DNA of 54,210 bases from an uncultured Aquiluna sp. (GCA_913775595.1 CAJYLB010000001.1:1191135-1245344); one strand, 5' to 3'; counted from the stretch's first letter, positions 6,023-49,228 are shown. The notes: generated by a model not told the origin, from the sequence alone. A program made the numbers and translations.

Positions 6023-6077
6023 ACAATCCTTTCGGGGGTTGTCAGAGGATGGGTCATTCATTTGGCCCATCCTCTGA
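6023..6077 (+). other. Intergenic stem-loops between the two srlE halves
   Basis: ACAATCCT-TTCG-GGGGTTGT, then TCAGAGGATGGGTCA/TGGCCCATCCTCTGA (15 bp, one GU pair). Confidence 0.6.
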
Positions 6078-6128
6078 TTTACCCAAAGTCAGACTTCCAA
6101 AAAACAAAGAGGTTCAAGGAGCAAACAA

Positions 6129-35221: not shown

Positions 35222-36514
35222 TTGAAGACTAAGTTTTTTGCGGCCGTAACAGCTCTTGCAATTTCGCTTTTTGGCTTTGCAGCACCTGCCCAGGCAAACG
35301 TTGTCGAACCTGCCTACACGATGGTTAACGTGGAGTCGGTATGGGAGCTTGGCCACAAGGGCGAGGGAGCCTCGATTGCCTTTATTGACCAGGGCGTAAA
35401 CCTCACCCACGAGTACTTCCAGGACCAGGTCGTTGATGGCTTCTGCCTCTACGCCTCCTACACCTCAAACTTTTGCCCCAACGGCTCCAAGAGCCAGACC
35501 GGCGTTTCCGCCGCATCGCAGCGCATCGTCAATAACTTCCCTGTCTTCGCCGAGAACCACGGCAACATGGTTGCCGGCATCGCTGCGGGCAAGCCCAACT
35601 CAGTTGCGGCCGGCGGCATTGCCCCCGATGCAAAGATCGTGATGGCGAACATCGACCTCACCCTCGAGGGCATCACCGCGGCGGCAAGGTATGTTTCTGA
35701 CCGGGCTGAAGCAAACAAGACCGTCGCACTCTCACTGTCTTTTGGGGGCCTGTTCTCAGAGATGCCAAGAAGCTGGCTGCTCTGTGACACCAACCCGGCG
35801 CTCGCCGAGTTGGCAGGCATCATCTCTGACATGCGAGACCGCGGCATCATCACATTTGCAGCCGCCGGCAACACCCCGGTGTTGGACATCGCCACGTCAG
35901 TCTTTCCAAGCTGCCTCGAGGAAGTCGTGGCGGTTGGCTCGGTTAATGCTCAGCGCGAAGTCTCTTGGTATGTGACCATGAGCAACAAGATTGAGTTCTT
36001 GGCTCCCGACTTCACAAGAAGCGCCGACACCCTCGGCTACATGACAAGCTCGGGAACCTCCGCGGCAACCCCATTGGTTGCAGCGGCATTCACAGTTTTG
36101 AAGCAGGCCTTCCCTGAGAAGACCAGCGAACAGATCCTGCTGGCTATGAAGCAGGGCTCCTCAAAGGTCGACGATGTAATTAGGAAGCAAATACCGCTTG
36201 TCAACATCGCTGGCGCCTACAACCTGCTCGCGGCAGGAGCTACCGCTCCTGTGGACCCAGGAAGTTCAAATGGCGAGCAGAAGGTGACAATTGGTACCTT
36301 CAACGGCTACATCGCCATCTACACCAAGGGCTATGAGGGCCTCAGACTGACAGCAAAGGTGGCGGGTAAGTGGCTCAAGGTCGACCCAATCACCCTGGCG
36401 CCAGGAAAGACCTACTCGCTAACAAAGCGCAACACAGGAGCCGGCTACACAATTAACGTCGAGGTCTACATTGACGGTGTGCTACTCGCACAAGACACGG
36501 TCCTGACCCGCTAG
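35222..36514 (+). CDS. Secreted S8 (subtilisin-like) serine peptidase with a C-terminal surface-protein domain
   Basis: Signal peptide (AQA); triad IDQG / HGNMVAG / GTSAATP; oxyanion AAGN. Confidence 0.88.
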   Translation: MKTKFFAAVTALAISLFGFAAPAQANVVEPAYTMVNVESVWELGHKGEGASIAFIDQGVNLTHEYFQDQVVDGFCLYASYTSNFCPNGSKSQTGVSAASQRIVNNFPVFAENHGNMVAGIAAGKPNSVAAGGIAPDAKIVMANIDLTLEGITAAARYVSDRAEANKTVALSLSFGGLFSEMPRSWLLCDTNPALAELAGIISDMRDRGIITFAAAGNTPVLDIATSVFPSCLEEVVAVGSVNAQREVSWYVTMSNKIEFLAPDFTRSADTLGYMTSSGTSAATPLVAAAFTVLKQAFPEKTSEQILLAMKQGSSKVDDVIRKQIPLVNIAGAYNLLAAGATAPVDPGSSNGEQKVTIGTFNGYIAIYTKGYEGLRLTAKVAGKWLKVDPITLAPGKTYSLTKRNTGAGYTINVEVYIDGVLLAQDTVLTR

Positions 36515-37257
36515 CGCCCGAAAACAAACCTGACTAGGTTCTGTGTTCCCCCGAGCTCAGAGAGCCTCCTAAGCCCAAAGCCAAGGCGAATAATTGGCGC
36601 CATGGTTCTGAAGACACGGGAGAAGACTTTTGCCCTTGCTATTCGGTCGCGGTCGGTGCCCCAGCCAGATCCCGAGGAGTCCTCGGGGTGAGAGGCGATG
36701 GTGATAGGCAGGAACACCCCCTTGCCACCGGCCCTGATGATATCGGCAATGAAGATGTACTCATCGCCCAGGTAGTTCTCTACCCCTGCGCCAAAATCAG
36801 TATCGAAGCTAACCCCGAGAGTGTGGATGCTCTCAACCCGCACCACCATTTCGTAGGTGGCGGCCCTGGCCGAGTTGAAAAGGCTTAGCTGCTCCATGCT
36901 CTTTGGGTAGTTTTTGCGCAGCTTGCCAGTTTGATCAGTGGCCTGGGCCAGCACAATGGCAACCTCGGGGTGCTCGTCCATGTATTGGCAGATAGAAGCC
37001 AGTCCAGCCGGTTCGAATTCAATGTCGTCATCGGCGAAGACCAGGAACCTACCCTTGGCCAATTCAAGTGCCCGGTTGCGACTCTTCGCCACTCCTGTGC
37101 TCGCTAGCTCGTCATAGGTCGCGTCCAGGGTCTTCGCATAAGTTGCTTTGTTTGGGTTCTGGACGACAACGAGCAGCTCGCTATCTGGGACCTTTGGTTG
37201 GCGTATGTTCTTTACCCGCTCTGCAAGGACCGAGTAGCCAATGGTGAGCGAGGTCAT
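36511..37257 (-). CDS. Glycosyltransferase family 2
   Basis: GVAKSRNRAL, FADDD, FGAG...GDE. Confidence 0.85.
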   Translation of the reverse strand: MTSLTIGYSVLAERVKNIRQPKVPDSELLVVVQNPNKATYAKTLDATYDELASTGVAKSRNRALELAKGRFLVFADDDIEFEPAGLASICQYMDEHPEVAIVLAQATDQTGKLRKNYPKSMEQLSLFNSARAATYEMVVRVESIHTLGVSFDTDFGAGVENYLGDEYIFIADIIRAGGKGVFLPITIASHPEDSSGSGWGTDRDRIARAKVFSRVFRTMAPIIRLGFGLRRLSELGGTQNLVRFVFGR

Positions 37258-38027
37258 TAGAAGCTGTGGGCCTTGGCCCTTGCAAAGCGCATGAGAGAAG
37301 AAGACACAGAGCTAAAGGTGGTGTTTTGCAATCTGAGCCCAAGGAAGATCACGATGGTATTTGCAAGGCTTATCTGGCCTGCGATGCTCAGCACGATTAG
37401 CAGCACAAAGAGCAAGACCACTCCGGCGCTCGCTAGCAGGGTGCCAAATTCGGCCTGCTGGATTCTCGCACCTAGCCTCTCGGCCGGGGTGACAACCTCT
37501 TTCGCCCTTCGCTTTTGAACAAACCCGCGCTGAGTCTTGAATTGCCTTACGAACAGCACACCAATTACCTGCAGCAGCACCAGCAAGAACACCAGGTTGA
37601 TCGCGGCAAAGGTCAGATCGAGGAAGAAAAAGAAAGTCGCTATCACGAGCATCTGGGTAATGAACGAGAGCACGTTGACAAGCTCGAGCGCCATCGCCCA
37701 CTCCCAGCTCTCCTCGTTGGCAGTTTTTTCGCGCTCGCTTGCCCCAAAGCTCTTGTCAAAGAACTTCACCCGGTAGGTCTTTTGCAGGTAGTTGGCAACC
37801 CTGGTGGTGGTAAAGAGCAATGCAAATAAGACAACCGAGACGACAATCTGGGTGGTGCTCTGGCCAGAGCCAAAAACAACCAGGTCTGTAAACAGCTTCG
37901 CTACCAAAAGCTCGGTCACCGGTATTGCTGCGGCAATGAAAACAAGGAGTATTAGCTGCCAGCGGTATTTGCCCTTCGGGATCATTTGCCTGGAGGACTT
38001 CCATAGCAGCGAGGTCATACCTTTCAT
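37257..38027 (-). CDS. Multi-pass membrane protein (ABC transmembrane-domain-like) in the glycan operon
   Basis: About six TM helices separated by long charged helices; translationally coupled to its neighbours. Confidence 0.65.
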   Translation of the reverse strand: MKGMTSLLWKSSRQMIPKGKYRWQLILLVFIAAAIPVTELLVAKLFTDLVVFGSGQSTTQIVVSVVLFALLFTTTRVANYLQKTYRVKFFDKSFGASEREKTANEESWEWAMALELVNVLSFITQMLVIATFFFFLDLTFAAINLVFLLVLLQVIGVLFVRQFKTQRGFVQKRRAKEVVTPAERLGARIQQAEFGTLLASAGVVLLFVLLIVLSIAGQISLANTIVIFLGLRLQNTTFSSVSSSLMRFARAKAHSF

Positions 38028-39775
38028 GAGAGCACCTTATTGATTGCCAGCCTGAGGTGATTCTCCACCTCATCCATCTTTTGCTCGGAGACCTTGATCT
38101 CTTTGGCAAGCGAGCGAAGGTCAAGCTTTGTGAGATCAAGCGGCAAAGGTAGCGGGTTAGCGACCTCTACCCCTGCACCGAGCGCGTAGTCCTCGTATTT
38201 GATACCGCTACCGTGAACGTTTTCCTCGTAACCCTCAAAGGTCACCAGGCTGCAGGGGATGCCATAGGAGTGACAGGTGATCATCACGTGCATGGCTGAG
38301 GTGACCACGAAGTCATACTCATTCAGCGCCTGCACAAACTGTTCGATATCTTCCCTGCTAGACATCATGACCGAGAGCTCGTCTATGCCCTCTGGCAGCC
38401 TCAGCGGTATGGAGCTGTGAGAGAAGTGCCTAACCAATACGCCTCGGCCATTGGTCTTGGCTCTGGCAACCGGCAGGATCCGCGAGATAACCAGCCCTGG
38501 ATCCCCAAATGCTGCTACCTCTGGTCCTCCGGAGGCATTTAGAACCTTTGCGGTTATCGGCCCGCGAACCGAGACGTAGGTTGCTTTTTTGTTTAGCTCA
38601 ATGTCTTCGGTTGAGACTCCAGTACCAACAACCACGGAGCTCGAGCGAATGAACCTGCCAATAGAGCCAAGTGCCACAATGTGCTTCTTATTTGTTGGCT
38701 TCACGGGTGACTGGAGCATCACCTTGGCATTCGAGTAGTGAGCAAGAATCAGCGGCGAGAGCCAGTCACCAAAGTTTCCGGGGAAAGGCTTCGCCCACCA
38801 CATCAAACTCAGCTCTTTTTCGCCGCCTGTTGAGTAGTGCAAAAAGGAACTTGCGGCAGCAATGTTTGCAAGCTCTCCCTGCGAGGGCATGAACTTCTTC
38901 TCGAAAGCGCTCAGGGAGTTCTCAAAAAGCTGTCTGTCTCCTCGAAGGCCCCCAGCCATCATTTCGCCCAGGGCCTTGGAGCGCTCAGGATCAATGCCCT
39001 TTGCCTGGCCGGAGGTGAGAACGCCAGTTACGCCAGTGGAGTCCGCAATCCTGCGAAGCGGATTGCGAAGAGAATCGGGGAGGTTCTTTTCAAGCTTCTT
39101 AGCCTGCCGGAGCAGCTTGCGCTTTAGCCCAACCTGCTTACCTCCAGAGTGCTGGACCACCTTGTTTTTGAACTCTGCAACATTGCCAGAGCTACCAAAC
39201 ACAAAAAACGGCATGCGCTGACCTGGTTCCAAGGGAGTGCGGTCACGAACAATTTCGGTGGTCGGGATCATCTGGAAATTCAGCTGCCTGGCATTTGCCC
39301 TCCAGGCCTCTTCGAGAAAGTAGTCGTCCGTTGCCTTCACCTCAGCACGCTTTTCAAGCTCGTCGGCATCGACAATGAGCTTTCTTGCCTGAGAAGAGGT
39401 GCCAATGCCCCAGAAGCTTGGCTCCCAGAACCTAGTGCGGTTTCCATAGCCAATCTGCAACGGTGAGCCAAAGCTTCTCTGGAAACCAATTAGGTCGGCG
39501 GTGGAGTTTGCGATGTAATCAGGCAGGTAGTTGATCCTGCAATCAACATCGATCCAAAAGACCTTTTTATCGGGGTGCTTCTCACACACCGAGCGAATAA
39601 ACCCAATCTTGCGCCGTGTGGTGTCGGCCCAGTCTTCACCCGGTGCCTTTGTTATCTCCAGCAGCTCATGGGCTATGCCCAGACTGTCTAGTTGCTCCTT
39701 GAGCTCACGAGCGTGACCCCCGTAGTACTCATCGGGGGTGTAGAAGCTGCAGACAATAACGCTGGGGTTACTCAC
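38024..39775 (-). CDS. Fusion: N-terminal DxD glycosyltransferase-like domain + C-terminal polysaccharide pyruvyltransferase-like domain
   Basis: SFYT, WIDVDC in the N half; NFGDWLSP, VRGP, GDPG, TSAMH, SYGIP in the C half. Confidence 0.78.
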   Translation of the reverse strand: MSNPSVIVCSFYTPDEYYGGHARELKEQLDSLGIAHELLEITKAPGEDWADTTRRKIGFIRSVCEKHPDKKVFWIDVDCRINYLPDYIANSTADLIGFQRSFGSPLQIGYGNRTRFWEPSFWGIGTSSQARKLIVDADELEKRAEVKATDDYFLEEAWRANARQLNFQMIPTTEIVRDRTPLEPGQRMPFFVFGSSGNVAEFKNKVVQHSGGKQVGLKRKLLRQAKKLEKNLPDSLRNPLRRIADSTGVTGVLTSGQAKGIDPERSKALGEMMAGGLRGDRQLFENSLSAFEKKFMPSQGELANIAAASSFLHYSTGGEKELSLMWWAKPFPGNFGDWLSPLILAHYSNAKVMLQSPVKPTNKKHIVALGSIGRFIRSSSVVVGTGVSTEDIELNKKATYVSVRGPITAKVLNASGGPEVAAFGDPGLVISRILPVARAKTNGRGVLVRHFSHSSIPLRLPEGIDELSVMMSSREDIEQFVQALNEYDFVVTSAMHVMITCHSYGIPCSLVTFEGYEENVHGSGIKYEDYALGAGVEVANPLPLPLDLTKLDLRSLAKEIKVSEQKMDEVENHLRLAINKVLS

Positions 39776-39798
39776 GGGTAAAAACTACCAGTAGCGGG

Positions 39799-40737
39799 CT
39801 ATTTGGCCCCTCTTGCAAGCCCCCACCAAAAACCCAGGCCCCAGGCAAAGTGCATTGTTGGCAGCACAATCATCAGCCACAGCCTCGTGGCTGGCTTGAG
39901 CTCACCGGCATTCATGGCGGCAAAGGCAATTACAAGCAAGTACAAGGTAAAGGGCAAACCAAATAGCGATGCCAGCACCAACATTGGAGGCGCCCAGTAG
40001 CGGGCAGCAGACTCTCCCGGTGCCTCTCTGGTTAGCGCCCCCCGCCAGACACCGGTTGAGAAAAACTGCTTTGCAAGGGCCTGCCAGCTAGATCTCGGGT
40101 AATAAGTGACAGTGAGCCTCGGGTCAAACCAGATCTTTCCCCCGGCTTCTCTTAGCCGCTTGTTGAGCTCCCAGTCCTGGCCCCTAACCCACCTAGGGTC
40201 AAAGCCCCCTACCTTGTCTAACCAGCTGCGCTGGAAACAGCCAAGGTAGACGCTGTCGGCTTCGCCCGCTTTGGTGCCGACGTGAAACGCACCACCGCCA
40301 AGACCAATGCGGTTGTTGTAGCCATAGGCAACAGCTCTTTGAAACTCGGTCTTCCCCTCTGCAACCATCTTGCCGCCGACATTTGCCGCATTGGTCTCAG
40401 CGAGAATCTGGTGAGCAAGCTGGGCATAGCCCGCAGGCAGTGTGCTGTGGGCATCGACCCGGATGACCAGCTTGTACTTACTCTCAGCAATTGCCAGGTT
40501 GAGCCCTGTTGCAGTATCTCCACCCGGGTTATCGACAACCTTGAGTTGGGGGTAGGTCTTTGTTAGCCCCTGTGCAACCTCTGCAGTTTTGTCATGGCTT
40601 GGGCCAATGGCGAGCACCAGCTCGGTGTCTCCCTTGAACTCCTGTTGTAAAACGGCCCTAACGGCCTCGTCCAAATACTTCTCTTCGTTGCGCACCGGCA
40701 TCACGAAGCTGATGCCGGCTTTAGTTCTTGTGGACAT
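39799..40737 (-). CDS. Glycosyltransferase family 2 (ExoA-like)
   Basis: VMPVRNEE, RVDAH, GGFD, QDWELNKR. Confidence 0.88.
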   Translation of the reverse strand: MSTRTKAGISFVMPVRNEEKYLDEAVRAVLQQEFKGDTELVLAIGPSHDKTAEVAQGLTKTYPQLKVVDNPGGDTATGLNLAIAESKYKLVIRVDAHSTLPAGYAQLAHQILAETNAANVGGKMVAEGKTEFQRAVAYGYNNRIGLGGGAFHVGTKAGEADSVYLGCFQRSWLDKVGGFDPRWVRGQDWELNKRLREAGGKIWFDPRLTVTYYPRSSWQALAKQFFSTGVWRGALTREAPGESAARYWAPPMLVLASLFGLPFTLYLLVIAFAAMNAGELKPATRLWLMIVLPTMHFAWGLGFWWGLARGAK

Positions 40738-42043
40738 TTCTCCCTAGCGCAATAAGTCTCCAGCCAGCTCTCTGCCAGCTCTCAACATCGAGCACGTTCC
40801 TGGCATCAATAACGGTCTTTACTGCAACCGCTTTGCCTAGAACCTCAGGATCTAGCTCTTTATATTCTTTCCACTCAGTAGCCAGAACGACTAGTTCCTG
40901 GTCCCTAAAAGCAGCATCAAGAGCTCTAGCTCGCAGGAGCTCCGGATGTCTTTCTCCCAAAGCATCAAGAGCAACCGGGTCATGCACGCTAACCTCAGCG
41001 CCGGCTTTGGCTAGCCCCAGGGCAATGTCCAGTGCGGGGGAGTCCCGCATATCATCAGAGTCGGGTTTGAAGGCAAGGCCAAGAACCAAGATCTTTTTGC
41101 CTGGGAGAGCCCCGAGCTCCTCGTGGGCAACATCAATGACTCTTTGCCTTCGACGCTTATTGATTTGGTCGACTTGACCGAGGAAGCCAACGGCTTCACC
41201 CACGCCAAGCTCCTCAGCCCTGGCTGCAAAGCCGCGAATGTCCTTTGGCAAGCACCCGCCACCAAACCCAGCACCGGTCCGGAGGAACTTGTTGCCAATG
41301 CGCTCGTCATAGCCAATGGCCTTGGCGAGCATCACCGCATCTGCACCCGAGGCCTCAGCGACCTCGGCCATGCCATTAATGAAACTGATCTTGGTAGCGA
41401 GGAAGGCATTGGCCGCAACCTTTACTAGCTCCGCTGTCTCAAGGTCGGTCTCAATCACTGGCACGCCACTTGTTATCAAACTCTCGTAGCAACTAAGCAA
41501 CACTTTGTTTGCTCTTTTGTCGGAAGTATTCGCACTGCCAACAACGATGCGGTCCGGCTTCAGAGAATCCTCAAAAGCTGTTCCCTCGCGAAGGAACTCT
41601 GGGTTCCAGGCAAGCAACACCTCGAAGCCGCAAGCCTCGCTCATCTGGCGCTGCAGCTCTCTTGCTGTCCCTACTGGCACCGTTGACTTACCTGCAACAA
41701 CCGTCTCTGGGCTAATTACCGCTGCAAGCTCCAGGCCTGCTGCAAAAACATAAGAGGTGTCGGCCTTGCCGGTGTCATCGGCCTGGGGCGTCCCGACGCA
41801 AAGAAAATAAAGCTCGCACAGCTCAGCGTCTTTGGGGCTGGCTGCAAAGCTCAAGCTTCCAGAGTCAATGACCTGGGTTAGGGCACTCTCTAGTCCGGGC
41901 TCAAAAAAGGGCAGCTTGCCAGCTGACAGCGCCTCTAGGCGATCGGAGCTGCGCTCAAAGCCAACAACCTCATGGCCAAGCTTGGCCATGGCAACGGCGT
42001 GAGTAGCTCCCAGGTAGCCAAGGCCAATAACGCCAACTCTCAT
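40721..42043 (-). CDS. ugd: UDP-glucose 6-dehydrogenase
   Basis: GLGYLG, CVGTP, KSTVPVGT, NPEFLREG, GFGGGCLPKD, FKP.SDDMR; start at ATG 42043. Confidence 0.93.
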   Translation of the reverse strand: MRVGVIGLGYLGATHAVAMAKLGHEVVGFERSSDRLEALSAGKLPFFEPGLESALTQVIDSGSLSFAASPKDAELCELYFLCVGTPQADDTGKADTSYVFAAGLELAAVISPETVVAGKSTVPVGTARELQRQMSEACGFEVLLAWNPEFLREGTAFEDSLKPDRIVVGSANTSDKRANKVLLSCYESLITSGVPVIETDLETAELVKVAANAFLATKISFINGMAEVAEASGADAVMLAKAIGYDERIGNKFLRTGAGFGGGCLPKDIRGFAARAEELGVGEAVGFLGQVDQINKRRRQRVIDVAHEELGALPGKKILVLGLAFKPDSDDMRDSPALDIALGLAKAGAEVSVHDPVALDALGERHPELLRARALDAAFRDQELVVLATEWKEYKELDPEVLGKAVAVKTVIDARNVLDVESWQRAGWRLIALGRNVHKN

Positions 42044-42114
42044 AAGCAACAGCCTAGGAGCTTTGAGATGACTAGCTGCGTGTTTGGCAGGTGGCCAAAA
42101 AGTGAAGTTAAACG

Positions 42115-42157
42115 AAAAAAGGCCCCGAGCCTGCGAATTCGTTCAGTCTCGAAACCT
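42115..42157 (-). terminator. Intrinsic-terminator-like hairpin on the minus strand, ~70 nt upstream of ugd
   Basis: AGGTTTCGAG/CTCGGGGCCT stem (GU pairs work only on the minus strand) followed by a U-tract. Confidence 0.55.
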
Positions 42158-42339
42158 TTTTCGTTGTTACGTGTACTAGCAGAAGGCTTGGTTTCAACTG
42201 CCTGACATCTTTAGGTAACTGGCGAAGGTCCGTTTTTGTTACGGCAAGAGCAAAAAACACTGGTTTTTTGCGAAAAGAATTAATCAGAAATCTCCGTACA
42301 AGCCGTAATGTCCGTACAGATTGTCCGTTAGCCTAGAGA

Positions 42340-42421
42340 TGTAAGAGTGTGCTATCTCCTGCTTGGTTGGAGGTATCTCGCTCTTGCAGCCTGCTGTCCC
42401 TATGGCAGTGGGTAAACCAAG
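42340..42421 (+). ncRNA. Structured 5' leader RNA, copy 1 (two hairpins plus pseudoknot)
   Basis: Homologous to 46376-46457 with compensatory base changes; see findings. Confidence 0.7.
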
Positions 42422-42435
42422 AAAGAAAGAGACAT

Positions 42436-45162
42436 ATGTCTAAAGCAACTCGTAAAGCACTTGCCATTGGTGCAGGTGCCGCGCTAGGTGCATCTTCTCT
42501 GATTGGACTGCCGGCCCAGGCTGCTGCGTTCGATCTAGAAATTGCCTACGCAGAAGGTAGCAATGCCTCTGTCTTCAACTCAGACACAATGGAAATCGAC
42601 ATCACCCAGGCGGGATTGATTGCCGATGCACTGGCACACGATTCGTTTGCCATTGTTATCTCTAACCCAGATAGCGCCAACCTCCTGGTGGACTTCACCG
42701 GAACTGGCGCTGTTGGTGCCGAGACATTTTCCGTTCTGATGGTTGATGCAGATGGTAACGCTGAGGCCGCTGCGGGTCAGACCCGTGCTGGTGACGGTAT
42801 TGCAGAGGGAACCGCTGAGGCGTTGACCTTCGCAACTGGTGACGCCGTTCTTGCAGTCCTCTACGACTTCAAGGACAATGTTGCCGCTGACCAGGTTCCA
42901 GACTCAATCAAGATCTCCCGTGCCGCAGCTGATGATGACTACGGCGACGACGGAGCCTCGATTTCGGTCTACACCTACTACGACTCTGACCGCGATTTCA
43001 CCGACCAGGATGACACCGGTAAGAGCAACGTCCTAGACGTTAACTTCGTTGACCCAGCAACCGTAAGCGTTGTTATGAAGGCCACCAGGGTTGTAGCTGA
43101 CGGCGCCACCTACCTAAACGAGAACGACTCTGCAAACCTTGCAGCCCTTGTTCGCTTCTCGAACTCCGACATCAACTTAGACACAATCGACTGGACTCAG
43201 TGGCAGTGGCAGGTCAACACCGACGGTGCTGACGTAGCTGCGGACAATGACATTGCTCCAGGCGAAGACTTTGTTGATGGCTTCACATCACATGATGCAT
43301 ACGGCCAGGCGATCCTGACCTTTGGTACCAACACCGCCCTTGCTGGAGCTAAGAGCTACCAGCTGCAGGCTAACTATGACGGTCAGACCAAGCTGTTCTC
43401 AGCCGCTGCCTTCAAGGTAGTTGAGGCTTCAAACGCAGGTGCTGACGGCATCGCGATTGAACTGACCGACTCTGCCAACCTGCTTGACAACGGTGCTGGT
43501 GATGTGGACGTACGTCCAGGTGCCACTTCAGTGCCGATGACCGTTCAGATTGACGACGGTGGAGTTGACCTAGCTGTTGCAAACCAGCCGGTAGTAGTTA
43601 CTCTTACCTCAGTTGCTGGAACCCACAGCCTGTCAGGCGTTTCGGGATCAGCTGCAGCTGGTAAGTCCCTTACCTACAGCACGCTGACCAACGAAGATGG
43701 CCAGGTTGAACTAACCGTTACCAGCTCTGCAGCTCTAGGTGATTCATACACCGTAGAGGCATACCTGCTGGACACCAACGGTGACGAGATTGCCTCAGAC
43801 CAGGCTCAGACAGTTGTTTACACTGCTGCTGCACTGACCTCATGGGCAACCAACACCACTGTTGCTACCGGTTCATCTGTCACCATCACTGCCTCCATCG
43901 AGGACCAGTACGGTGAGCCAATGAGCACTGACAACACCGGCAAGGCAATCTCGGTTGGATTCATCGCAACCGACGCAACTGACCTTGACGAGTATGTTGC
44001 AGTTTCCGGTGGTTCCGCATCTGTAACCTTCGCCAACTTCCTAGTTGACGGCGACAGCGACGTGCTGACCGTTTCTGCACACACTGGTGCAGAGGACGAC
44101 CGCACCAACCTAAATGGCACCCTCTCTGACATCACAGTAACTCTGTATGCAGAGCTAGAGGTTGCCGGTGTAACCACCAATGCAGCTGAGTACTCAGCCA
44201 CCGTCGGATACTCCGACTTTGGTAACGACGTAACCTCAGCTGACGGTACCGCTGCAAGCGTTTCGGGATCTGTCATTGACTCTGTCGGTGCAGGTGTACC
44301 TGGTGCTTCGGTAACCGTCTCCGGTGCAGGCCTTCAGTTCAACGAGGGCAGCAACTGGGCTGTTGGTTCACACACCTTCAACGCAGATGAGGCCGGTGCC
44401 TTCTCCGTTGACGTTTACACCCACCTAGCTGATGACACGACCATGACAATCACCTCTGGTGGTAAGTCAACGACCGTAACCATTGCTGGTGCTCTAAACG
44501 ATGGTGGTGGCGCAGTTTCAGCAGCAGACCTAGTACTGAGCTGGAACCTAGCTGAGGTTGTCATGTACAACACCACTTACCGCGTTGACGCAACCGTAAC
44601 CGACGTATGGGGTAACGCAATTCCTAACGCAGAGGTAACCTTCGCAGGAGAGGCTGCAGCGCAGTTCAACAGCGCAGCTTCTGTTGCAAAGAACACCAAC
44701 GCATCAGGTGTCGCAACCGCATACCTACGTTCGTTGACCGATGTTTCGGGTCTGGCAGCTGTGTCTGTCACTCTGTCTGACAACATCGACTTCGACGGTG
44801 CTGGTGGAGCAAACGTTACTGACGTAGGCGACACCTTCACTGACGACGCGACCACCAGCTGGGACGAGTCAGCAGCAACTGACGTCATCACTGCAGAGGT
44901 TGACTTCCTAACCTCAGCTCCAGCTGCTGCAGCTGACACCAAGGTCAACGCTGGTTCCTTCAAGGGCTACGTTGCAATCTACGCAAAGGGTCACGAGGGC
45001 AAGCGCCTAAGTGCCAAGGTTGGAGCAGACTGGGTAGTAGTACCTGTTCTGGCCTCAAACTTCGAGCGCGTAGTTGAGTTCACAGGCGCTGGTTACACCA
45101 TCGCGGTTCGTATCTACATCGACCGCGTATTGGTAGACACCATCACCGTAACTACCAAGTAA
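42436..45162 (+). CDS. Large secreted acidic Ala/Thr/Asp/Val-rich surface (S-layer-like) protein, paralog 1
   Basis: Signal peptide (AQA), ~908 aa beta-rich and Cys-free, basic C-terminal domain, strong terminator; start at ATG 42436 after a purine-rich RBS. Confidence 0.75.
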   Translation: MSKATRKALAIGAGAALGASSLIGLPAQAAAFDLEIAYAEGSNASVFNSDTMEIDITQAGLIADALAHDSFAIVISNPDSANLLVDFTGTGAVGAETFSVLMVDADGNAEAAAGQTRAGDGIAEGTAEALTFATGDAVLAVLYDFKDNVAADQVPDSIKISRAAADDDYGDDGASISVYTYYDSDRDFTDQDDTGKSNVLDVNFVDPATVSVVMKATRVVADGATYLNENDSANLAALVRFSNSDINLDTIDWTQWQWQVNTDGADVAADNDIAPGEDFVDGFTSHDAYGQAILTFGTNTALAGAKSYQLQANYDGQTKLFSAAAFKVVEASNAGADGIAIELTDSANLLDNGAGDVDVRPGATSVPMTVQIDDGGVDLAVANQPVVVTLTSVAGTHSLSGVSGSAAAGKSLTYSTLTNEDGQVELTVTSSAALGDSYTVEAYLLDTNGDEIASDQAQTVVYTAAALTSWATNTTVATGSSVTITASIEDQYGEPMSTDNTGKAISVGFIATDATDLDEYVAVSGGSASVTFANFLVDGDSDVLTVSAHTGAEDDRTNLNGTLSDITVTLYAELEVAGVTTNAAEYSATVGYSDFGNDVTSADGTAASVSGSVIDSVGAGVPGASVTVSGAGLQFNEGSNWAVGSHTFNADEAGAFSVDVYTHLADDTTMTITSGGKSTTVTIAGALNDGGGAVSAADLVLSWNLAEVVMYNTTYRVDATVTDVWGNAIPNAEVTFAGEAAAQFNSAASVAKNTNASGVATAYLRSLTDVSGLAAVSVTLSDNIDFDGAGGANVTDVGDTFTDDATTSWDESAATDVITAEVDFLTSAPAAAADTKVNAGSFKGYVAIYAKGHEGKRLSAKVGADWVVVPVLASNFERVVEFTGAGYTIAVRIYIDRVLVDTITVTTK
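44941..45162 (+). repeat. 222-bp direct repeat (3' end of paralog 1), second copy at 49007-49228
   Basis: Manual alignment gives 203/222 identical, with the first 50 nt identical. Confidence 0.9.
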
Positions 45163-45193
45163 CGTTGTTCTAGGAACTAACTAAGAACTAACC

Positions 45194-45227
45194 ACTAACC
45201 CCCCTAGGGAAACCTAGGGGGGTTAGT
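45194..45227 (+). terminator. Terminator hairpin after paralog 1
   Basis: Perfect 15-bp stem ACTAACCCCCCTAGG-GAAA-CCTAGGGGGGTTAGT. Confidence 0.85.
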
Positions 45228-45391
45228 CATTTCCAGGGCGCATTGTCCGGCAATAGAGTGCAATGCCGTAGCTGAGGCTGACTCAATTTTCGATCATTGA
45301 GCCTACTGTTCCTAAGCCAATTTTTTTGAGACCAAACTGCTGCTTTGTGCGGCACCACTTGCAAGCCTAGGAGTGCCTATTCGACAACTAA

Positions 45392-45414
45392 CCCCCCTGG
45401 AAAACCCAGGGGGG
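45392..45414 (-). terminator. Hairpin downstream of the luxR-like gene
   Basis: CCCCCCTGG-AAAAC-CCAGGGGGG, 21 nt past the stop codon. Confidence 0.6.
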
Positions 45415-45435
45415 CAAGTCGTCTCTTGGAGCTAG

Positions 45436-46143
45436 TCAGACCGTATGGGTCTCTTGGGGAATCGACCCCATAGCTTTAGCCTTGATAGCTGCTTGTTGCC
45501 TATTGGCAACACCAAGAGACCTAAAAATCTTCACCGTTTCCTGTTTGATTGAAGACTCGCTCAGGATGAGCTCATTTGCAATTTGAAGGTTTGTCTTCCC
45601 CATTCCAATGCCCATGAGGATTTTGAGTTGTCTCTCTGTCAAAGGCTCGTTGGTAGCGCTTCTCTTTACCTGTTCAAGTGGACCAAACCCAGCAGAAGCT
45701 ACAAACAGACCAAGGCTTAGGTAGTAGGCCTGCTCCATTTTTGTCTCCATTTCAAATTCTTCGGTGCCGCCTTTGCCTTTCTCAAGGATTGTCAAGATGA
45801 CTCCGTTGACAACGTCTGCCTTGATAGCTGGGCATGCCTGCACATCTACCTCTTCGTTGAGAGATCTCCTAGCGACGCGGCGAGTCTTGATCGCCTCAGC
45901 AAGCACTGAGTCATCGAATGAGCTGAACTCCTTTGTGTCTTCAAATGGGTATTGGCCGTAGCCACCCATGAGCTGCAAGGTACCTGTCGAGGAGAGGAGA
46001 AACAGGTGATTGCCGCGCATACCTACTCCGAGAACGGTGTCGAGAGTAAGGCGCCTGCAGTAGTCATGAGGAGTCGAGGACCTGTTCAATAGGTCGATAG
46101 CCGGGAGGTCCCAACCCCCTTTTAGCTCTTTAGTTGCACTCAT
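45436..46143 (-). CDS. LuxR-family HTH transcriptional regulator with an N-terminal sensor (GAF-like) domain
   Basis: LTERQLKIL...GKTNLQIANELILSESSIKQ...LGVANR; ATG 46143 after GAGGGG. Confidence 0.85.
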   Translation of the reverse strand: MSATKELKGGWDLPAIDLLNRSSTPHDYCRRLTLDTVLGVGMRGNHLFLLSSTGTLQLMGGYGQYPFEDTKEFSSFDDSVLAEAIKTRRVARRSLNEEVDVQACPAIKADVVNGVILTILEKGKGGTEEFEMETKMEQAYYLSLGLFVASAGFGPLEQVKRSATNEPLTERQLKILMGIGMGKTNLQIANELILSESSIKQETVKIFRSLGVANRQQAAIKAKAMGSIPQETHTV

Positions 46144-46375
46144 AATCAATCCCCTCGTTTACAACAGTCCCCCAGCCTGCCCTAGCGCTTGCCCAAAAAA
46201 AAGGGGGGGAGGGGTATCTGCTTTGTACTTTTATACGACTGTAAACGGACAATAAGACCAAAGAAACCACAATCCTGTCCCCCGTTTTGGGTTATACGGA
46301 CAGACAATTGGACATCTAGTACAGACCACGGCACCCCCTAGTAACTTCTAGCCGTCCTCGCTGGTTATCTAGCTT

Positions 46376-46457
46376 TGTAAGGGTTTGCTATCTCCTGCTT
46401 GGTTGGTGGTATCTCACCCTTACAGCCCTTTGTCCCTATGGCAGGGGGTAAACCAAG
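46376..46457 (+). ncRNA. Structured 5' leader RNA, copy 2
   Basis: Homologous to 42340-42421 with compensatory base changes. Confidence 0.7.
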
Positions 46458-46471
46458 AAAGAAAGAGACAC

Positions 46472-49228
46472 ATGTCTAACAATAAGTTCCGTAAGGGACT
46501 GGCGCTTCTATCTGGAACCGCCCTGGCCTCAGCTTCGCTGATTGCTGGCCCAGCTGCAAATGCAGCCGGTGGCTTCGATCACGCTCTGGCGTCGGGTTCG
46601 AGTTTCGGAATGTTCAGTGGAGAAGGTTTGAGGGTTGACTTCGCAATCTCACCTCTGCTGGCCGAAGCAGACCTGTCCCCACTTTGGGCCGCAAATGTGA
46701 CCTCGGCGGAGTCCACGGATGTCAGCTTGACCTTCCACGACTTGGCTGCGACCGACACAGTGGATTACGTGATGTACGACTCTCGTGGAGTTGAGGTCGC
46801 CGCTGCGACCCTAACTCTAGACGCCAACAGAGCGGTGGTCATTCCGTTCGCCGCCAATGATGGCGTCTCAGCAACCCTTTACAACCTAGAGGACGCAGCT
46901 AACGCCGACCTAGCAGCTCTATCGGACATTACCGTGGCTGATGACGATCTAGGTTTTGGAGACGGTGGAAACACAATTACTCTTCAACAGTGGATTGAAG
47001 AAGCGGGCACACTTGCTTCGGTAGATAGCAAGGCCACCTCGGTAGCTACTTTCACCGTTGTTGACCCAGCTTCGACCACAGCCACCATCAAAGCAACTCG
47101 CACGCTCAATGACACTCCTGCCCTAGACGCAAACGATGCCGGTGATGCAGGACTCTATGTTCGAGTTACCTTCAACAAGGATGTAAACCTGGACCAGATG
47201 TCTTCCGACTCATGGGTTTTCGGTATTGAAGCATCAGACGGCGATGGAGACGACGCTACAGCGGCCTTCACAGCCGACTTCCCTGTAGGCCAGGACAGCT
47301 TTGATGACCTGGGTCATTGGTACGGCCTGGTTGCGCTCGATGCTCAGGTGATGGATGCCGGTAACTGGTACAAGGCGAGCATCGCGTACGATGCTGTCGG
47401 CGCCAAGACCTACAATTCCAGCGCCTTTACAGTTCCGGTTGCCCCAACTGATGCGGATGTTGACGTCGATGGCGTGACCGTCGACCTCGCAGCATCTGCT
47501 GAGGGTAACGCTGTAATTGATGGCGATGTAACCATCTCCACTGGAACAGACTCAGTTACATACGTTGCAACCACAGATGATGGTGGCACCGCTGTGACTA
47601 ATGCGAACAGCCCAGTTATCGCAGTAATCACTGCAGGTGACTACATGCCAACAGGAGCGTCAATCACAGTCGCTGGGTCCGCTGACAGCATTACTGCTGC
47701 AGACCAAGCAATGACTGTTTCTGGCCTAACAAACGCAGATGGTGAGTTCTCGATTACCGTCACGTACACGGGTAACGATGACGCTGTTGAATACGATGTC
47801 GACTTCTACGCAATAACTGAAGCCGGTGCCGTAGCTGCTGCTGACAACCTAACTGCAACCTATGCAGACGCTGCTGTTGACACAGCTGTGGCGGACACAG
47901 CTGTTCTGTCTGGAGCCAACTTGACCCTCAGCGTTGACTTCGCAGATCAGTTCGGAAATGCCGTTTCGGAGAATGCCGACGGCGCCCTGAAGGTAGTGCT
48001 CTATGCAACTGACACTGACGACCTGGAGATCTTTGCTCCTGTTGTAGGTGGAACTGCTGACTTCAGCTTCGCAAACTTCTTGACGGGAGACGAAGTTGAC
48101 ACCCTAACTTGGGCAACCTTTACGGGAGATGATGCAGATTACGCGGACAACCTTGTTGCTGGCCTAACAGACACCGTTACCCTCTATTCGGCTCGCGATG
48201 TCTATGGAATCAACGTTGGTGCTGCAACATTGGACACCTCAGTTGTGTACGAGGACTTTGTGACCGGTGACGAGGCGTTCGTCCAAGATGGCGACAAGGT
48301 AACTGTTTCTGGAACTGTCATTGACGAAAACGGCGGTGGCGTTCCGGGTGCACAGGTAACGATTTCGGGAGCGGGTCTTCAGTTTGAGAACAGTGGGGAT
48401 TACACCATTGGCTCAATAACAGTCACAGCGGACGAAGGCGGAGCATTCGAGGCAGATGTTTGGACCCATGTTGCTAGCGCAACCGGTGTTGACATTACTG
48501 TGACCTCTGGCGGCGCATCGGCAACTGTAGAGATGACCTCTGCAGTTCCTTCCGGTGCCGGTGACAACAGTGCTGCCAACTACTCATTGACCTGGAACGT
48601 CCCTGCAACGGTAGTCGTTGACACCACCTATGCAATTACCGCAACTATGGCGGACAAGTGGGGCAACCCTCTCAAGAACGCAGACCTGGAGTTCCTAGGA
48701 ACTGCTGCTGCTGAGTTCAATGGAAGTGGAGTTGTAGTTGAGAAGACCACTAACTCCAAGGGTCAGGCAACCGTCTACCTACGTTCGCTTGAAGGTGTGA
48801 CTGGTCTGTCAGCAATTCAAGTACAGGTTGTATCGGTTGACGTTGACGGTGGTGGCGCGGAAGACGCTGCTGATCTAGCCGATACTCTTACCGACAATGA
48901 GGACACCGCTTGGGATGAGTCATTGTGGTCTGATACGGTCGAAGCTGAGATCAACTTCCTGGCCTCAGCCCCAGCTGCAACTGGCGACGCTGGATCTGAC
49001 TCAGTGAAGGTCAACGCTGGTTCCTTCAAGGGCTACGTTGCAATCTACGCAAAGGGCTACGAAGGTAAGCGCCTAAGTGCCAAGGTTGGAGCTGACTGGG
49101 TAGTAGTACCTACTCTTGCTTCCAACTTCGAGCGCGTAGTTGAGTTCACCGGTGCTGGTTACACCATTGCGGTTCGTATTTACATCGACCGCGTACTGGT
49201 AGACACCATCACAGTTACCACAAAGTAA
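46472..49228 (+). CDS. Large secreted acidic surface (S-layer-like) protein, paralog 2
   Basis: Signal peptide (ANA), ~918 aa, colinear with paralog 1 (DQFG, FANFL, VPGA.VT.SGAGLQF, YLRSL, WDES), near-identical C-terminus. Confidence 0.75.
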   Translation: MSNNKFRKGLALLSGTALASASLIAGPAANAAGGFDHALASGSSFGMFSGEGLRVDFAISPLLAEADLSPLWAANVTSAESTDVSLTFHDLAATDTVDYVMYDSRGVEVAAATLTLDANRAVVIPFAANDGVSATLYNLEDAANADLAALSDITVADDDLGFGDGGNTITLQQWIEEAGTLASVDSKATSVATFTVVDPASTTATIKATRTLNDTPALDANDAGDAGLYVRVTFNKDVNLDQMSSDSWVFGIEASDGDGDDATAAFTADFPVGQDSFDDLGHWYGLVALDAQVMDAGNWYKASIAYDAVGAKTYNSSAFTVPVAPTDADVDVDGVTVDLAASAEGNAVIDGDVTISTGTDSVTYVATTDDGGTAVTNANSPVIAVITAGDYMPTGASITVAGSADSITAADQAMTVSGLTNADGEFSITVTYTGNDDAVEYDVDFYAITEAGAVAAADNLTATYADAAVDTAVADTAVLSGANLTLSVDFADQFGNAVSENADGALKVVLYATDTDDLEIFAPVVGGTADFSFANFLTGDEVDTLTWATFTGDDADYADNLVAGLTDTVTLYSARDVYGINVGAATLDTSVVYEDFVTGDEAFVQDGDKVTVSGTVIDENGGGVPGAQVTISGAGLQFENSGDYTIGSITVTADEGGAFEADVWTHVASATGVDITVTSGGASATVEMTSAVPSGAGDNSAANYSLTWNVPATVVVDTTYAITATMADKWGNPLKNADLEFLGTAAAEFNGSGVVVEKTTNSKGQATVYLRSLEGVTGLSAIQVQVVSVDVDGGGAEDAADLADTLTDNEDTAWDESLWSDTVEAEINFLASAPAATGDAGSDSVKVNAGSFKGYVAIYAKGYEGKRLSAKVGADWVVVPTLASNFERVVEFTGAGYTIAVRIYIDRVLVDTITVTTK
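49007..49228 (+). repeat. 222-bp direct repeat (3' end of paralog 2)
   Basis: About 91% identical to 44941-45162. Confidence 0.9.

Follow-up and report, generated by a model that had tools for sequence, protein, structure and literature searches.

The 5' untranslated region (UTR) in Escherichia coli ompA messenger RNA (mRNA) carries a stable hairpin within a few nucleotides (nt) of its 5' end which, together with the ribosome binding region, protects the message of an outer-surface protein from RNases that depend on the 5' end. For the mRNAs of Lactobacillus surface layers (S-layers), half-lives of 14-15 min are put down to a structured 5' UTR in the relevant passage of PMC3666127. The SLH RNA motif, as a section of Stav et al. 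2019 (PMC6429828) describes it, is an orphan, covarying motif of Synergistaceae and Firmicutes, with about 60% of its 80 examples upstream of genes with an S-layer-homology (SLH) domain, and a passage of PMC7669872 states that planktonic Actinobacteria have an S-layer that aids resistance to grazing. Here we describe a structured leader of 82 nt that occurs twice in a stretch of 54,210 nt from an uncultured Aquiluna sp. (GCA_913775595.1 CAJYLB010000001.1:1191135-1245344; this whole stretch is the window, and positions are counted from its first letter), each time in front of a gene for a secreted surface protein. Lakes, estuaries and coastal seas harbour Aquiluna and Rhodoluna in abundance; the genomes of these bacteria are streamlined, and their resistance to grazers and phages is considered to depend on the cell surface. 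We show that the leader consists of two covarying hairpins followed by an invariant tail, and we propose, with moderate confidence, that it represents an undescribed family of structured 5' leaders on the mRNAs of major surface proteins, which would stabilise the message and organise its translation, with an invariant loop and the tail acting as a recognition pair.

Structure, covariation and distribution of the leader

The two copies, A (42340-42421) and B (46376-46457), are homologous 82-nt elements in a pairwise alignment of the 361 nt around each. Near-identity spans the sequence from 42340 and 46376 to just beyond the start codons, and it collapses upstream of the first hairpin (P1) and again a few codons into the open reading frames (ORFs). 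The copies differ at 10 of the 82 nt, always within stems, and eight of these changes preserve pairing: two pairs are changed on both sides and still paired (A-U to G-C and G-U to U-G), in four cases a change on one side leaves the pair intact, and two changes break it, with loops, linker and tail identical throughout. Minimum-free-energy folds yield P1 and a second hairpin, P2, for both copies, at -38.1 kcal/mol for A (z -5.2, with none of 200 shuffles equally good) and -34.3 kcal/mol for B (z -3.1, with one of 200 shuffles equally good), and the source genome (1.245 Mb, one contig) contains exactly these two copies. A first-pass annotation of this DNA had reported two homologous elements set between differing upstream and N-terminal coding DNA, with substitutions that mostly keep the pairing of P1 and of P2 around a CCTAT loop, and it proves right at all of its positions. 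The parts of both leaders are as follows.

42340-42388, + strand: P1 of copy A, a long imperfect hairpin in which P1a (10 bp) and P1b (7 bp) are separated by an internal loop that has a G-C pair at its centre; minimum-free-energy fold and covariation of 18 pairs
42360-42368, + strand: apical loop of P1 in copy A, UGCUUGGUU, with the invariant core CUUGGUU at 42362-42368
42389-42413, + strand: P2 of copy A, a hairpin of 10 bp that encloses CCUAU; fold and covariation
42415-42421, + strand: tail AACCAAG of copy A, complementary to the loop core and 1 nt past P2
42422-42431, + strand: purine-rich ribosome binding site (RBS) of copy A, AAAGAAAGAG, with the ATG at 42436
46376-46424, + strand: P1 of copy B; fold, covariation and comparison of the copies
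46396-46404, + strand: apical loop of P1 in copy B, UGCUUGGUU
46425-46449, + strand: P2 of copy B, around CCUAU; fold and comparison of the copies
46451-46457, + strand: tail AACCAAG of copy B, invariant
46458-46467, + strand: purine-rich RBS of copy B, AAAGAAAGAG, with the ATG at 46472

To these we added homologues in two sets. A covariance model (R1), built from 17 leaders, found 57 matches in genomes, 54 of them distinct. A second set, independent of the hairpins, was drawn from metagenome contigs by an exact match to tail and RBS; its 118 rows comprise 60 with the canonical loop upstream, two identical contigs with a loop one U shorter, 47 unrelated chance matches to A-rich sequence and nine with too little upstream sequence to judge. 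From it came 46 new and distinct leaders, all of which score 52-120 bits with R1, so that 100 distinct leaders (54 from genomes and 46 from metagenomes) are at hand, with the same architecture throughout.

The two hairpins are maintained by compensatory evolution. In the 54 distinct leaders from genomes, whose alignment leans towards the model, 88.4% of the cells are paired as compared with 67.1% after shuffling, both partners change in 26 of 35 pairs, none of 500 shuffles reaches the observed covariation score, and pairing falls to 36-53% if the partners are slid by 1-3 columns. In the 46 metagenome leaders, the corresponding values are 86.3% and 60.2%, all 28 pairs show double changes, including each of the 18 pairs of P1, and RNAalifold predicts P1 and P2 from this alignment unaided. 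G-U pairs are frequent in the stems of both sets and would be A-C mismatches on the opposite strand; the structure therefore belongs to the mRNA-sense (+) strand. Of the cis-acting RNA motif that the first-pass annotation had proposed, the covarying structure and its location in cis are thus confirmed on that strand, directly before the RBS of both paralogous surface-protein genes, with strong covariation of P1 and P2 in both sets of homologues. With 100 distinct sequences and every stem pair covarying, the leader is among the best-supported orphan RNA structures.

The dimensions of the leader are constrained as well. P2 may have any sequence at near-constant length, with 9-10 bp in 79 of the 100 leaders, and P1 has 14-19 pairs in 93 and 17-23 layers in 95 of them. 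The linker between P1 and P2 measures 0-4 nt (at most 1 nt in 77/100), and that between P2 and the tail 1-2 nt in 74/100, with a range of 0-6 nt that is never exceeded. The position three pairs below the loop of P1 is mostly a mismatch (non-pairs in 46 of 54 leaders), and sequence conservation is absent from the internal loop of P1.

Loop and tail behave in a different manner from the stems that flank them. CUUGGUU and AACCAAG are both present in all 57 aligned matches, where seven of seven Watson-Crick pairs are possible, and CTTGGTT is carried by 60 of the 62 tail-anchored metagenome leaders. The seven proposed pairs are invariant in 54 of 54 distinct leaders, and because they never vary, covariation speaks neither for nor against their formation. 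Between loop and tail, any of seven single transitions would still leave a G-U or U-G pair, and not one of these is observed, whereas the flanking stems use wobble pairs freely; as judged from the aligned sequences, the constraint on loop and tail is stricter than pairing requires, and their exact complementarity is not plausibly due to chance. The sole natural variant of the loop core, found in two identical metagenome contigs (L240 and L307), reads CUUGGU and combines a GC-rich P1b with a normal tail and a complementarity of 6 bp. A Rhodoluna-type subfamily (L059, L061, L063, L249, L254 and L255) has the loop UACUUGGUU, with a change of G to A outside the 7-mer.

All leaders come from Aquiluna or Rhodoluna-like Microbacteriaceae, with one to three copies per genome that often stand in tandem, about 3.4-4 kb apart. 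A blastn search of 401 genomes of the family gave full-length matches in all six other sampled genomes of the source's own genus and in one genome of the genus labelled g38, as well as matches to tail and RBS in four of seven genomes of a third genus, g10; the covariance model did not bear out four further matches of 20-25 nt in other genera (L014-L017). With R1, matches were found in 26 of 61 genomes of the own genus (g1), where the genomes missed are mostly fragmented or incomplete assemblies and many of the matches lie at contig ends, in 13 of 61 genomes of a wider sample of g10, and in one of six genomes of g38. The same model matched none of 28 genomes from other genera of the family (one genome each), none of 60 from 23 other families, none of 150 other genomes sampled across the order and, at E<=1, none of five small-genome relatives. 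Among 80 loci fetched by pattern, 26 were confirmed by the model and are labelled Aquiluna, Rhodoluna, Microbacteriaceae, Micrococcales or Actinomycetota; the other 54, which a loose pattern had drawn from unrelated phyla, have no model match and are chance matches. A weak match at 6037-6119 of the window (15.9 bits, E 0.33) was disregarded. Homologues had been expected in the Luna cluster, and the confirmed loci are indeed those of Aquiluna and Rhodoluna.

Promoter-like motif and downstream genes

A second conserved element lies upstream of the leader in both copies.

42305-42330, + strand: promoter-like motif of copy A, with GTAAT (42305-42309), a 16-nt spacer and CGTTA (42326-42330)
46341-46367, + strand: promoter-like motif of copy B, with GTAAC (46341-46345), a 17-nt spacer and GGTTA (46363-46367)

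The upstream regions of A and B look unrelated, yet they have in common the motif GTAAY-N16/17-SGTTA, which ends 9-10 nt before P1. In its strict form the motif stands at the same distance before 47 of the 57 leaders, the remainder having CGCTA or GTTGA variants by inspection, and in the source genome it occurs before the two leader genes and in only three further places. We take it to resemble the -35/-10 promoters of extracytoplasmic function (ECF) sigma factors; the source genome has four ORFs of the sigma-70 family, of 408, 209, 514 and 177 amino acids (aa), two of them small. From the motif we infer transcription start sites (TSSs) near 42337-42339 in A and 46373-46375 in B, that is, 1-3 nt before P1 and about 95 nt from the AUG, and P1 would therefore be a 5'-terminal hairpin. 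The start zone foreseen earlier for copy A (42335-42341) agrees with this prediction and with the fixed distance of the conserved motif.

Further boxes accompany the promoters. Those resembling TGTCCGGACA are found in the window at 42309-42329 (TGTCCGTACAG-ATTGTCCGT) and 46279-46312 and are clearer at loci L005, L018, L019 and L038; they overlap the spacer in promoters of the CGTTA type and lie about 55-100 nt upstream in those of the GGTTA type, a placement that would fit a regulator acting oppositely on the paralogues. A genome-wide search of the source genome for clusters of TGTCCG-type boxes found none near the locus and none elsewhere. The upstream regions of the GGTTA type have in common a box GTCCCCC(A/G)TTT..GGT about 95 nt before P1 (46266-46285 in the window; L005, L007, L025, L036, L038 and L071). 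In the divergent intergenic region between a LuxR-type gene and leader B, a homopolymer tract at about 46195-46215 (A run, G run, A, GGGG) could be a site of slipped-strand events, and there are similar upstream G runs at L026 and L051.

The genes downstream and around the leaders are listed here.

42436-45162, + strand: gene A, encoding the secreted protein P0001 (908 aa), which has a signal peptide, matches Big_1 weakly and has a conserved beta-sandwich at its C terminus
46472-49228, + strand: gene B, encoding P0002, a 918-aa secreted paralogue of P0001
44940-45159, 49006-49225 and 36263-36508 in the window, and G000:C1:946744-947013: copies of the C-terminal module, in both surface proteins, a subtilase and a 3999-aa ORF
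45436-46149, - strand: gene for a LuxR-type DNA-binding regulator, between both surface-protein genes
36511-42049, - strand: cell-wall glycopolymer cluster, with a polysaccharide pyruvyl transferase (38024-39775), two GT2 glycosyltransferases and a UDP-glucose/GDP-mannose dehydrogenase

P0001 and P0002 are 41% identical overall and near-identical in their last ~70 residues. Every leader precedes an ORF with a signal peptide of the MSKNxTRKGLA type and a divergent mature part, most of these ORFs having about 900 aa. The complete ORFs behind the Rhodoluna-type loop at L059, L061 and L063 encode secreted proteins of 310-320 aa, not ~900 aa, which start MSKKLIAVASA. Relatives of P0001 number 343 at E<=0.001, and among the 120 listed those that are named are hypothetical, except for one cupredoxin-like copper-binding protein. 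The description of these genes as S-layer-like in the first-pass annotation holds for secretion, given the signal peptides, and does not extend to recognised S-layer or SLH domains, of which Pfam and NCBIfam show none; the proteins are plausible S-layer candidates.

The last ~75 residues are predicted to form a 7-strand beta-sandwich (mean pLDDT 73), for which nothing beyond generic FN3/Ig-like matches (E above 0.01) came out of a fold search. The subtilase at 35222-36514 likewise ends in this module, as do further secreted ORFs of Aquiluna and g38, and up to nine occurrences are seen per Aquiluna genome; the module matches no Pfam or NCBIfam family and was not found in g10 with the query used. 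We regard it as a candidate cell-wall anchoring domain. The source-genome ORFs that have this domain outside the two leader genes are without a leader, and the anchor-domain proteins of three relatives (L197-L199) have no MSKN-type start, the upstream stretch having been inspected in one of the three. The position of the glycopolymer cluster beside the surface-protein genes recalls, by analogy, the CsaB-dependent anchoring of S-layers to pyruvylated polymers in Firmicutes, and may point to a similar arrangement here.

Possible functions of the leader and of its loop and tail

The reading that we favour is that the leader stabilises the message and organises translation. A dedicated ECF-sigma-like promoter would start transcription 1-3 nt ahead of P1, and P1, as a 5'-terminal hairpin, would shield the message against 5'-end-dependent decay, by analogy with the 5' UTRs of Lactobacillus slpA and E. 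coli ompA. The rigid block of P1 and P2 would prevent upstream sequence from pairing with the weak, A/G-rich site where ribosomes land, and the mutually complementary, invariant loop and tail would serve as a sequence-specific recognition pair that tunes the access of ribosomes. The landing site AAAGAAAGAG has neither a GGAG core nor the AGGAG-type core that is enriched ahead of source-genome ORFs; its only match to 16S rRNA is that of AGAAAG with CUUUCU in the 3' tail. The RBS is unpaired in the minimum-free-energy folds of both copies.

Several points weigh against this reading. It is the promoter-like motif, and this motif only, that would place P1 at the 5' end of the transcript, and the high expression of the downstream genes is assumed. 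The downstream proteins match no S-layer family, with sub-threshold matches only to Big_1, BIg21 and CarboxypepD_reg in Pfam and none in NCBIfam. In the ensemble the RBS is only moderately open, with a mean unpaired probability of 0.61, and of 0.49 for the AUG, so that its insulation by P1 and P2 has weak support. A plain stabiliser would need no invariant loop and tail, and stabilisation is therefore not the whole story. In favour of the reading, RNA-library contigs cover the leader and gene A in all four runs (three studies), although such contigs may include DNA and show neither transcript ends nor levels. Several of them join the leader directly to the conserved C-terminal part and skip the gene body, which fits relatives that have the same leader and other gene bodies. 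The bin 42034-42300 is uncovered in the four runs, as is the body of gene B, gaps in cover not being evidence and contig ends not being transcript ends. In run X3, an Illumina adapter in a single contig abuts 42373, in the 3' strand of P1b, and marks a fragment end there.

What the loop and tail do is the point on which the explanations part. The first-pass annotation had joined them in a pseudoknot, of which the 7+7 complementarity and its invariance stand, and the pseudoknot as drawn is not supported, since the linkers look too short for a P1 of 17-23 layers. The tail, which starts 0-6 nt past P2, emerges at the foot of P1, while the loop crowns a rod about two helix turns high; given linkers so short and a P1 so long, loop and tail cannot meet in cis as long as both hairpins are folded, barring a sharp bend of P1. 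Hence, going by the counts of linkers and layers, pairing in cis with both hairpins folded looks sterically excluded. A K-turn-like bend is unlikely because the sequence of the internal loop of P1 is not conserved, and P1b covaries and therefore forms. Under a cis H-type pseudoknot, or an alternative fold of CUUGGUU with AACCAAG, the leader would be a switch of the riboswitch kind that occludes or exposes the RBS, perhaps stabilised by a ligand or replacing P1b. The perfect complementarity of the two invariant 7-mers and the position of the tail, which abuts the RBS, speak for such a switch, and a conformer with P1b open is energetically conceivable, as the duplex of loop and tail is worth -9.7 kcal/mol against -3.1 kcal/mol for P1b in its common GGUGG form, with the conserved mismatch in 46 of 54 leaders lying within P1b. 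We nevertheless consider it unlikely: the invariance of all seven pairs (54/54) goes beyond what pairing demands, linkers of 0-4 and 0-6 nt around a P2 that is itself a closed hairpin of 9-10 bp leave too little length by our count, and no conserved internal loop would bend a P1 whose upper part evidently forms. Nor do the predicted folds contain a terminator or a platform that sequesters the RBS, and the genes are structural, not metabolic. Indeed, we found no expression platform of a riboswitch, there being no U-tract after P2, an unpaired RBS, and conserved bases only in one apical loop and the tail.

If the complementarity is invariant although cis pairing looks sterically blocked, the partners might meet in trans, with P1 as an antisense-type recognition hairpin that targets AACCAAG beside the RBS of the same mRNA family; dimers or chains, cross-talk between paralogues, or a small RNA processed from P1 would then make translation depend on concentration. 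An antiparallel dimer could satisfy both loop-tail pairings geometrically, paralogues within a genome have identical loops and tails on different stems, and the CUUG of the P1 loop is what we take to be a YUNR-like turn motif. Other partners are also wanting, as the source genome has no extended complement of loop or tail beyond the two leaders, its third TGCTTGGTTG lies inside a coding sequence, and the rRNA operon has no CTTGGTT, one AACCAAG downstream of the 16S gene, and interrupted duplexes as the best matches of loop to rRNA, none of them convincing. Against this, pairing alone would tolerate G-U transitions, of which none is seen, the case for trans pairing is built by reasoning throughout, and we know of no precedent for a bacterial mRNA that dimerises with itself through its leader; we therefore think pairing in trans improbable. 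There is a similarly small chance that the leader makes a self-recognising mRNA, with a recognition hairpin and its own target on one transcript, too distant for cis pairing, so that leaders pair between molecules. If that were true, self-recognising leaders in very small cells could make translational feedback depend on dose, or let variant surface proteins exclude one another. Slightly less probable still is a protein operator, in which the invariant loop (with its conserved closing C-G pairs and a U-U mismatch), the tail, or both are bound sequence-specifically by an RNA-binding regulator, by a component of the ribosome or its platform, or by the surface protein in feedback, complementarity being secondary. 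Base identity that is absolute and excludes wobble is what base-specific contacts typically produce, conservation extends to the lengths of the stems, and P2 ends about 22 nt before the AUG, the distance at which folded leaders dock on the 30S platform. This leaves the exact complementarity of two invariant 7-mers unexplained, with a chance of about 6 in 100,000 per register, and no candidate RNA-binding gene is linked to the locus, whose neighbours encode the LuxR-type DNA-binding regulator, glycosyltransferases and proteins of unknown function. An explanation at the level of DNA, with CTTGGTT and AACCAAG as inverted half-sites of a DNA-binding regulator and the hairpins incidental, could appeal to the inverted repeat that the motifs form and to the LuxR-family gene between both surface-protein genes. 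We rejected this half-site model because the spacing is unphased, varying continuously over 50-60 bp in disregard of the helical repeat; moreover, the sequence in between evolves by compensatory changes, including strand-specific G-U pairs, and the regulator gene cannot fit between the tandem copies spaced by ~3.4 kb in other genomes, all of which makes this explanation highly improbable. A leader that stabilises the message and organises translation remains our preferred reading, its loop and tail being a recognition pair whose partner may lie in trans, in an alternative fold or in a protein. This pair is unlikely to work as a static pseudoknot in cis, given that its two halves are at opposite ends of P1, the loop at the tip and the tail at the foot.

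Novelty and comparison with known systems

Neither the whole window nor any of 16 other leader loci matches an Rfam 15 family at gathering thresholds, and a relaxed cut-off of E<=10 adds just two matches below threshold, which lie on the opposite strand (MIR399, 12.1 bits with a threshold of 57, and U6, 10.9 with a threshold of 44). The impression that the element belongs to no named family is thereby upheld as far as Rfam 15 goes. In the full-text literature that was searched, in which most subscription journals are missing, no description of the leader was found. We conclude that it is a new family, narrow in distribution, within a known kind, the cis-acting structured 5' leader. It marks the genes for major hypervariable surface proteins and thus offers a handle for annotating them in metagenomes; it is likely to be a strong expression element for the genetic tools available in Rhodoluna, of which one species, Rhodoluna lacicola, is naturally transformable according to PMC11577799, and it provides a clean test case for translation control by an invariant loop and tail that are unable to close in cis. 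Should the pairing of loop and tail work between molecules, it would represent a new kind of bacterial mRNA regulation.

Among systems in which a loop and a downstream segment are known to pair, the H-type pseudoknots of preQ1-II and SAM-II have a hairpin loop complementary to a 3' segment beside the RBS, and their stem is short enough to span. The leader described here differs in its stem of 17-23 layers, in a connector that consists of a closed hairpin and 0-10 nt, and in a pairing that is without covariation. Antisense hairpins of the CopA, Sok and RNA-OUT type have a long imperfect stem and a loop of 6-9 nt with a YUNR-like turn, and their target lies shortly before an RBS; here, by contrast, hairpin and target are on one transcript, and the source genome has no separate antisense gene. 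The ompA leader is not known to have an invariant pair of loop and tail, and it differs further in that the 5' end is only predicted in our case and the decay enzymes of Actinobacteria are not those of E. coli. The nearest described object is the SLH motif, compared here by its description in the source cited above and by the lack of a match in Rfam 15, and distinguished by downstream genes which, in our case, are without an SLH domain. The best functional analogue is the leader of Lactobacillus slpA, the "UTLS", which likewise is a folded leader before a surface-protein gene, its protein being very abundant. The two systems belong to different phyla, and the function that experiment has established for slpA is inferred for the leader of Aquiluna and Rhodoluna; the invariant, complementary loop and tail, which are not reported for slpA, are what sets this leader apart.

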